The notes below the pieces were generated by a model. It saw nothing but the letters and a program-made list of their open reading frames with translations, was not told the DNA's origin and made no database searches. From the NCBI RefSeq assembly GCF_003334815.1, contig NZ_QOWO01000008.1: a stretch of 64,000 bases of DNA. The stretch is one strand, 5' to 3'. The position numbers and the translations under genes were made by a program. The stretch comes from Escherichia coli (GTDB lineage: Bacteria; Pseudomonadota; Gammaproteobacteria; Enterobacterales; Enterobacteriaceae). How positions within the stretch are numbered: the stretch's first letter is position 1; each line of letters begins with the position of its first letter. Positions 11,227-11,621 of the stretch are shown piece after piece.

Positions 11227-11360
11227 CAATATTTTCCTCCCGCGCTAAAGATCACATAATCTTAACAAGAATGTTAAAAAACGCTGGACTCAGACAGTAG
11301 AGTGTGTGTTATGGTTGACTATAAAGTCAGCGAAGGAAATGCTTCTGGCTTTTAACAGAT

Positions 11361-11463
11361 AAAAAGAGACCGAACACGATTCCTGTATTCGGTCCAGGGA
11401 AATGGCTCTTGGGAGAGAGCCGTGCGCTAAAAGTTGGCATTAATGCAGGCTTAGTTGCCTTGC
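11361..11463 (-). ncRNA. sdsR: sRNA SdsR (RyeB), sigma-S-dependent, ~103 nt
   Basis: Minus-strand sequence GCAAGGCAACTAAGCCTGCATTAATGCCAACTTTTAGCGCACGGCTCTCTCCCAAGAGCCATTTCCCTGGACCGAATACAGGAATCGTGTTCGGTCTCTTTTT read directly; matches remembered SdsR, including a 3' terminator hairpin and U-run; located in the pphA-yebY intergenic region as expected. Confidence 0.85.
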
Positions 11464-11553
11464 CCTTTAAGAATAGATGACGACGCCAGGTTTTCCAGTT
11501 TGCGTGCAAAATGGTCAATAAAAAGCGTGGTGGTCATCAGCTGAAATGTTAAA

Positions 11554-11593
11554 AACCGCCCGTTCTGGTGAAAGAACTGAGGCGGTTTTTTTA
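11554..11593. terminator. Bidirectional rho-independent terminator (yebY on minus, probable RyeA on plus)
   Basis: AAAAACCGCC-cgttctggtgaaagaactga-GGCGGTTTTTTTATT: GC stem flanked by an A-run upstream and a T-run downstream. Confidence 0.7.
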
Positions 11594-11621
11594 TTGGAAA
11601 TCAAAAGGCTATTTTAGGTAA

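Follow-up and report, generated by a model that had tools for sequence, protein, structure and literature searches.

The pphA-yebY spacer

The window, a stretch of 64,000 nt of Escherichia coli DNA, carries at positions 11,227-11,621 a 395-nt spacer between two minus-strand genes, pphA and yebY. The spacer holds two small RNA genes, sdsR (ryeB) and ryeA (sraC), which overlap on opposite strands. From position 9757 onwards the window contains 3,501 nt of the E. coli K-12 MG1655 chromosome (NC_000913.3, 1921500-1925000) as an exact substring match, and a window position is converted to an NC_000913.3 position by adding 1,911,743. The features of the locus, in window positions, are the following.

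10570-11226, minus strand: pphA coding sequence (phosphoprotein phosphatase 1), downstream of sdsR; open reading frame and RefSeq b1838 at 1922313-1922969
11284-11289, plus strand: CTGGAC block in the -35 region of ryeA; 19-nt spacer between TGGACT and the -10; kept in 14 aligned Enterobacteriaceae loci, about 20 nt upstream of the -10
11307-11315, plus strand: sigma-70 promoter of ryeA, putative extended -10 TGtTATGGT, hexamer TATGGT at 11310-11315
11323-11594, plus strand: RyeA (SraC), antisense RNA of about 270 nt; RefSeq b4432, primer extension, RACE, in vitro transcription and Term-seq
11360-11391, no strand assigned: core of the attachment site used by integrative elements, in the 3' portion of sdsR, 32 nt; present at both prophage junctions in NZ_CP101292.1
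11361-11463, minus strand: SdsR (RyeB), about 102 nt; Rfam RF00111, RefSeq b4433, primer extension, RACE and Term-seq
11367-11395 (hairpin) and 11366-11361 (U-tail), minus strand: intrinsic terminator of SdsR; 11 pairs and a 7-nt loop, then CTTTTT, found by the terminator scan
11467-11477, minus strand: sigma-S-type extended -10 of sdsR, TCTATTCTTAA; hexamer TATTCT at 11475-11470, C(-13) at 11476, then an A/T-rich discriminator
11492-11497, minus strand: -35 hexamer of sdsR, TGGAAA (-34 to -29), 16-nt spacer, within the conserved block CTGGAAAACCTGGCGTCGTCA
11551-11592, plus strand: intrinsic terminator of RyeA (A5, hairpin, T7); inverted repeat, fold and mapped 3' ends
11622-11963, minus strand: yebY coding sequence (DUF2511), the conserved upstream neighbour of sdsR; open reading frame and RefSeq b1839

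Annotations of the locus go back to 2001-2003; the mapping of its transcript ends, promoters and mechanism had been done by 2019-2021. It is almost certainly the SdsR/RyeA antisense pair of E. coli K-12, which is fully known already. Since the curated K-12 record and the published maps carry both RNAs, the pair is an ordinary known feature, and nothing among all the results contradicts the identification. SdsR at 11361-11463 on the minus strand sits downstream of yebY on the same strand, in keeping with the rule that sdsR is found downstream of yebY (PMC3333887). The spacer was found at 95% identity or more in all 5,426 of the 5,426 complete E. coli genomes searched. In E. coli genomes annotated by PGAP the content of the spacer is 'none', and ncRNA features are present only in the curated MG1655 record. 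As a discovery the locus is of low value; it serves as a positive control for reading from the sequence only, a reading that had placed SdsR to the base and correctly predicted the RyeA terminator.

SdsR and its promoter

The original prediction read a complete SdsR with its own terminator on the minus strand at 11361-11463, and this reading is borne out by the covariance model, the RefSeq annotation and the hairpin followed by CTTTTT. The RF00111 (SdsR_RyeB) match covers 11361-11460 on the minus strand and model positions 1-100 of 100, with 114.4 bits (E 1.8e-21), well above the gathering score of 38 bits. RefSeq b4433 is drawn at 11361-11464 (104 nt), which puts its 5' end, 11464, 1 nt upstream of the start as refined by experiment. 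With primer extension and 5' RACE, Choi et al. 2019 (PMC6610125) located that start at 11463, 1 nt downstream of the older annotation and the very base that had been predicted. The 3' ends obtained by RACE are +100 to +102, which correspond to 11364-11362 (PMC6610125), and the 'primary' sdsR 3' end in Term-seq is 1923104 on the minus strand, i.e. 11361 (Adams et al. 2021, supplementary file 1, PMC7815308).

The 102-nt RNA folds with -34.8 kcal/mol (z = -4.67 against shuffles) and its terminator hairpin with -15.8 kcal/mol (z = -3.62). In the terminator stem, compensatory changes are found at 5 pairs among 91 distinct sequences. A 63-aa open reading frame on the minus strand, 11327-11518, coincides with SdsR and its promoter and was dismissed as an artefact.

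A sigma-S-type -10, which was to be sought upstream of 11463 on the minus strand, is present there as TCTATTCTTAA at 11477-11467. It fits KCTAYRCTTAA at 10 of 11 positions and is the sole such site on either strand of the spacer. As hallmarks of the sigma-S promoter of sdsR, Frohlich et al. 2012 (PMC3333887) name C at -13, a discriminator rich in A/T and a spacer of 16 bp; the site in the window carries the same C(-13), discriminator and spacer. The block CTGGAAAACCTGGCGTCGTCA around the -35 is kept across genera. Primer PM_SdsRR (Choi 2019) swaps out TATTCT, and SdsR is abolished in that -10 mutant (PMC6610125). In vitro, SdsR of about 100 nt is made by E-sigmaS alone, with a Rho-independent end (PMC6610125).

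The RyeA transcript

RyeA starts at 11321, 11322 and 11323, and the mature, annotated 5' end is 11323, the most downstream of the three (PMC6610125). The 3' ends found by RACE are +261 to +270, or 11583-11592 (PMC6610125), and the 'primary' ryeA 3' end in Term-seq is 1923337 on the plus strand, or 11594 (PMC7815308). Both methods agree with the predicted placement of RyeA. Neither of the two outcomes named beforehand as refuting the prediction, a missing covariance match for SdsR or transcript ends that put RyeA elsewhere, was seen, and the observation is well outside what chance would give. The one boundary of the RNA in need of correction is on the left, where the edge had been put at 11330, 7 nt past the 5' end. 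In vitro, a Rho-independent product of about 270 nt is obtained from E-sigma70 alone (PMC6610125). The RNA is predicted to fold with -93 kcal/mol (z = -4.18).

SdsR (11362-11463) is nested in RyeA (11323-11592, 270 nt), at RyeA positions 40-141. From this geometry follows complementarity of RyeA over the whole of SdsR, as had been claimed. Two Term-seq 3' ends internal to RyeA, 11378 and 11427, lie inside the SdsR overlap (PMC7815308) and fit RNase III cleavage of the duplex.

The hexamer TATGGT is exactly what is swapped out by primer RyeA-p3 (TGTGTGT-CTCGAG-TGACTATAAAG, Choi 2019), and the resulting mutant has no RyeA (PMC6610125). The TGT in front of the hexamer would make it an extended -10, and the CTGGAC block at 11284-11289 may contribute to the promoter from the -35 region. 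A simple scan for promoters and terminators recovered from the spacer only the SdsR terminator and a promoter-like site that has nothing to do with the pair. Neither real promoter, with a weak -35 and an extended or sigma-S -10, was picked up, nor was the RyeA terminator, whose loop and bulge are beyond the limits of the tool. The silence of the scan is taken to reflect the tool and not the absence of these features.

Both Rfam families of the pair match the window over the full length of their models. RF00101 (SraC_RyeA) matches 11357-11501 on the plus strand with 175.1 bits (E 2.9e-40, gathering score 37 bits), a span of 145 nt of the RNA of about 270 nt; the 5' end and the terminator of RyeA are not modelled. 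RF00111 and RF00101 are members of one Rfam clan, CL00105. In 12 diverse loci, among them 5 from Shewanella and 1 from Paraglaciecola, RF00101 scored above threshold antisense to every SdsR match, and despite these matches nothing in the 5 Shewanella loci and the Paraglaciecola locus suggests a RyeA. Since RF00101 scores antisense to all SdsR homologues tested, the RyeA match, which largely mirrors the SdsR match, is not independent evidence and should not be counted apart from it. What speaks independently for RyeA is the promoter, the terminator and the mapping of the transcript. The true extent of the RNA, 11323-11594, is nearly twice the length of the Rfam model.

The RyeA terminator

The arms of the terminator, 11551-11560 and 11581-11590, form a 10-nt inverted repeat with 100% complementarity that encloses an inner stem, with A5 at 11551-11555 and T7 at 11586-11592. 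The plus-strand fold has -20.0 kcal/mol (z = -5.07); of 200 shuffles, not one was as stable. Because the 3' ends of RyeA map to the T-run, the hairpin at 11551-11590 is the RyeA terminator. The plus-strand terminator that had been placed at 11554-11593 is therefore real and ends RyeA; its first coordinate was off, the arm with the A-tract beginning at 11551.

The same hairpin probably also ends yebY on the minus strand, to judge from its sequence. A stronger form of this proposal, that the hairpin is mainly the terminator of yebY (yobA-yebZ-yebY) and that RyeA ends there incidentally by bidirectional use, has about an even chance of being right. The A5-hairpin-T7 arrangement is symmetrical and folds alike on both strands, the minus-strand fold having -19.8 kcal/mol (z = -6.61); the hairpin lies 30 nt past the yebY stop codon; and in many Enterobacteriaceae loci among the matches listed the same hairpin is followed, at -89 to -94, by a T-run in the sense of yebY. 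Against it, the T-run in K-12 is longer on the RyeA side (T7 against T5), and the Term-seq supplement (PMC7815308), which has the plus-strand end at 11594, lists no minus-strand 3' end at 11551-11592. For the latter reason a bidirectional terminator is kept here as inference. The two roles are compatible, and RyeA ends at the hairpin in either case.

Conservation across species

A pattern search with the SdsR core in species-representative genomes gave at least 120 loci, 109 of them with full flanks. Among the matches listed, the mean identity of SdsR to K-12 over 109 species is 0.83-0.99, where the value of 0.99 belongs to the pattern segment and is high by construction, and that of the sdsR promoter (-35 to -1) is 0.77. 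In the same 109 listed species the RyeA-specific parts are near background, the 5' part with a mean identity of 0.34 and the 3' part with one of 0.35. These values reproduce the statement of Frohlich et al. that sdsR is conserved and sraC poorly conserved (PMC3333887).

In the global MAFFT alignment the ryeA promoter region has a mean identity to K-12 of 0.41 (109 species among the matches listed). This value understated the conservation of the promoter because the distance of the ryeA motif differs between genera, and a motif search corrected it. Among the matches listed, 27 of 110 loci carry the motif TG[GT]TATG[GT]T in the sense of RyeA past the SdsR 3' end, compared with 0-1 in three control segments. 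In E. coli the distance between the ryeA -10 and the SdsR 3' end is 44 nt, in most other genera among those matches 62-81 nt; E. coli therefore lacks some 30-36 nt of the RyeA leader. This difference is in line with the finding of Frohlich et al. that the Salmonella RyeA -10 is about 35 nt further from the SdsR 3' end than that of K-12 (PMC3333887). For Citrobacter koseri, Enterobacter cloacae or Kluyvera, the conserved TGTTATGGT would set the RyeA start about 7 nt downstream of this motif, and the predicted RNA would exceed that of E. coli by about 30-36 nt.

The terminator shows the same kind of recurrence. Among the matches listed, a RyeA-sense terminator is present somewhere in the scanned interval in 65 of 65 Enterobacteriaceae loci, and in the great majority of these 65 the T-run is found 117-123 nt upstream of SdsR +1. 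The listed loci from Yersinia, Serratia, Dickeya, Hafnia and Shewanella mostly lack one in the scanned interval. Because both the -10 motif and the position of the terminator recur, the RyeA transcription unit appears to be maintained within Enterobacteriaceae while its sequence drifts. The chances are roughly balanced that the unit is in fact more conserved than the description of sraC as poorly conserved suggests, with the -10 TG[GT]TATGGT, the CTGGAC block and the terminator in at least 10 Enterobacteriaceae genera, a leader loss of about 30-36 nt in E. coli, and a promoter replaced by integrative elements. If true, this would be a refinement of known biology and no new type of system, and the comparative results are incremental.

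It is highly improbable that RyeA is a dual-function RNA which also encodes a small protein. Short ATG frames can be read in it, such as that at 11339 (7 codons), which is a weak argument. This ATG has AGGA only 1-2 nt in front of it, a poor Shine-Dalgarno spacing; the curated K-12 record has no CDS there; and the RyeA-specific sequence is unconserved, some 30-36 nt of it in other genera being missing from E. coli. The 63-aa frame on the other strand merely overlaps SdsR and its promoter. Coding of a small protein in RyeA was rejected on these grounds.

Integration at the sdsR 3' end

In the window the attachment site at 11360-11391 is a single copy and empty. Elsewhere in the species the site is in use. 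In 237 of the 5,426 complete E. coli genomes (about 4%) the spacer is not in one piece, and one case checked carries a prophage. In this strain, 2003-3014 (NZ_CP101292.1), the match is interrupted precisely at the 3' end of SdsR, beside a tyrosine integrase and an excisionase (int, xis), and the inserted element is a lambdoid prophage of about 46 kb that carries nleG7. The 32-nt core is found at both ends of the element with the integrase adjacent, as is typical of an attachment site in an sRNA gene. The intact sdsR stays beside yebY, and the K-12 ryeA promoter is displaced by 46 kb.

Other rearrangements affect the same region. Similarity of E. albertii to K-12 stops exactly at the SdsR 3' end, and Salmonella diverges there too. 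In 21 of 110 species among the matches listed, part of the SdsR 3' end is repeated 58-89 nt downstream. Strain FDAARGOS_944 has an IS1 within sdsR. If integrative elements do replace the promoter, they would rewire the antisense control of SdsR and pphA; swapping of the promoter is reported for phage PhiW104 in Salmonella. The conservation of the RyeA -10 and terminator, the short E. coli leader and the attachment site offer a guide to such rewiring of the switch by mobile elements.

The growth-phase switch

The account of the switch joins two bodies of evidence. The identity with K-12, the covariance matches, promoter motifs, terminators, complementarity and conservation pattern come from the present analysis; the transcript ends, sigma-factor dependence, mutual degradation, transcriptional interference, targets and toxicity come from the literature. 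SdsR depends on Hfq and represses tolC, yhcB and mutS as well as Salmonella ompD (PMC6610125, PMC3333887), and no trans function of RyeA is known (PMC6610125).

In stationary phase, sigma-S polymerase initiates SdsR at 11463 on the minus strand through TATTCT with C at -13, and transcription stops at the hairpin and U-tail (11361-11395) to give the Hfq-dependent RNA of about 102 nt, which represses its trans targets through short base pairing. In exponential phase, sigma-70 polymerase initiates RyeA at 11321-11323 on the plus strand through the putative extended -10, crosses the whole sdsR gene and stops at the hairpin and T7 at 11551-11592, after about 270 nt. The two RNAs form a duplex of about 102 bp, and its cleavage by RNase III removes both. 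Convergent transcription of ryeA in addition interferes in cis with transcription of sdsR and with read-through into pphA. The outcome of this antagonism is a growth-phase switch.

Several published observations agree with such a scheme. RyeA accumulates in exponential and SdsR in stationary phase, and overexpression of either one leads to faster loss of the other (PMC6610125). In the ryeA -10 mutant SdsR appears earlier and the expression of tolC and yhcB is lower; in the sdsR -10 mutant RyeA is prolonged (PMC6610125). In stationary phase ryeA-ryeB is the top dsRNA cluster captured by p19, with signatures of RNase III cleavage (PMC7373196). The pphA gene is reported to be transcribed mainly by read-through from the sdsR promoter across the sdsR terminator, and repression of pphA and sdsR needs the act of ryeA transcription, not the RyeA RNA (PMC6610125). 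In the other direction, Frohlich et al. found that SdsR rose only about 1.5-fold without SraC, which they judged non-essential in controlling SdsR (PMC3333887).

These last two results could be taken to mean that the RyeA RNA has no function, either because only convergent transcription matters or because RyeA is antisense noise with a promoter swapped at each integration of an element. Repression of pphA indeed does not call for RyeA in trans, the effect of SraC on SdsR levels is small, and identity across species (among the matches listed) is 0.34-0.41 in the RyeA-specific segments and 0.83-0.99 in SdsR. In some E. coli, E. albertii and Salmonella an inserted prophage or island parts sdsR from the K-12-type promoter. 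Such a reading nevertheless seems unlikely. It has to contend with the mutual degradation of the two RNAs under ectopic co-expression and with an abundant in vivo duplex that RNase III cleaves. The earlier SdsR and the lower tolC and yhcB expression in the ryeA -10 mutant also speak against it. The -10 motif and terminator position kept in many Enterobacteriaceae genera argue for selection on the transcription unit, although this conservation does not separate the RNA from the act of its transcription. The growth-phase switch, with both duplex cleavage and interference in cis, is the strongly preferred reading.

Comparison with known systems

The pair in the window is identical with sdsR (ryeB, b4433) and ryeA (sraC, b4432) of E. 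coli K-12 in sequence, neighbours, promoters, terminators and transcript ends. SdsR-RyeA is filed as a type VIII (RNA-RNA) toxin-antitoxin system in TADB 3.0 (PMC10767807), because SdsR in excess is toxic and RyeA counteracts the toxicity, as reported by Choi et al. 2018 according to the accounts of that work in PMC6610125 and PMC10767807. By the overlap, which gives perfect complementarity over the whole of SdsR, the RyeA antitoxin can pair with the SdsR toxin. Among type VIII systems SdsR-RyeA is, with creTA, one of two founding examples that TADB 3.0 gives as experimentally validated, and it consists of overlapping RNAs from opposite strands. It differs from creTA in that the 'toxin' SdsR is a conserved core regulator of the sigma-S regulon, dependent on Hfq, and its toxicity is seen upon overexpression. 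The toxin-antitoxin label, which rests on overexpression phenotypes, thus gives an antisense regulatory pair a second reading.

The Campylobacter pair CJnc190/CJnc180, described in a paper that also cites SdsR/RyeA, likewise sets a trans-acting sRNA against a cis-encoded antisense RNA in a duplex cut by RNase III; the sequences and the organisms are unrelated to those of SdsR/RyeA. A parallel to the integration site is the sdsR/sraC hot spot of Salmonella, where the SdsR RNA and its promoter are as here and the last ~23 bp of ryeB are the attachment site. Balbontin et al. 2008, as summarised in PMC7380047, described the last 23 bp of ryeB as an insertion hot spot used by phage PhiW104. In E. 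coli 2003-3014 the same site is used by the 46-kb lambdoid prophage, whereas in the K-12-type window it is empty.

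Insertions at the 3' end of SdsR

The 3' end of the small RNA SdsR (window 11360-11391, minus strand) is a target of mobile elements. A lambdoid prophage of about 46 kb, carrying nleG7, is inserted at this point in E. coli 2003-3014 (NZ_CP101292.1; compared sdsR loci L122 and L124), and the 32-nt core at 11360-11391 is present there in two copies, one at each prophage junction. The sdsR gene of E. coli FDAARGOS_944 (NZ_CP065613.1; L123) is split by IS1. The pphA-yebY spacer is broken up in 237 of the 5,426 complete E. coli genomes, and the site in K-12 is empty. The SdsR 3' end was already known as an insertion hot spot (Balbontin 2008, as summarized in PMC7380047).

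A second, partial copy of the 3' half of the SdsR terminator (GTATTCGGTCTTTT) lies 58-89 nt past the SdsR 3' end, with CGAAATT-like repeats upstream of it. Among the matches listed, it is found in E. albertii (L004), Salmonella arizonae (L090), Serratia (L027) and 18 more loci, and its spacing from the SdsR 3' end is almost invariant between loci. The copy is probably either a remnant of an attachment site or a set of integrase arm sites belonging to resident islands.

Promoter regions and possible RyeA processing

The extended -10 of the antisense RNA RyeA, TG[GT]TATGGT, and a CTGGAC block upstream of it (window 11284-11315) are kept in at least 10 genera of Enterobacteriaceae (loci L062, L011, L039, L091, L080, L105, L015 and others). 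Their distance from sdsR is about 30-36 nt greater in the other genera than in E. coli, and this comparison of sequences implies a putative deletion in the RyeA leader that is specific to E. coli. On the minus strand, a T-run (CTTTTTATT in K-12) occupies 11518-11526, at about -55 to -62 from the SdsR start and upstream of the sdsR -35. Escherichia, Citrobacter, Enterobacter and Salmonella all keep it at this position. The T-run may be a feature resembling an UP element, or it may form the tail of a weak hairpin.

A Term-seq listing places plus-strand 3' ends within RyeA at 11378 and 11427, inside the SdsR overlap, which is consistent with duplex products of RNase III or other processing. The RyeA fragments of about 60 nt and about 150 nt known in the literature are examples of such products.

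Other Rfam matches in the window

46698-47005, minus strand: MicL sRNA (RF02654), full-length, 381.9 bits; MicL of K-12 is the sigma-E-dependent sRNA within cutC
60996-61073, plus strand: C0465, 111.6 bits
42720-42762, plus strand: ES036/CssrF, 45.5 bits, barely exceeding the gathering score of 37.6

SdsR-like RNAs outside Enterobacterales

SdsR-like RNAs are found outside Enterobacterales in Shewanella (L024, L043, L055, L058 and L109) and Paraglaciecola (L099), with Rfam scores of 62-88 bits. The gene of S. atlantica comes after rsmF, not yebY, and a -10 of the CTA..ACT type with a C upstream is visible in its sequence; rsmF and sdsR are 1.5 kb apart in E. coli. These RNAs have the conserved middle stem, CCC motif and terminator of SdsR, but differ from it in their 5' third.
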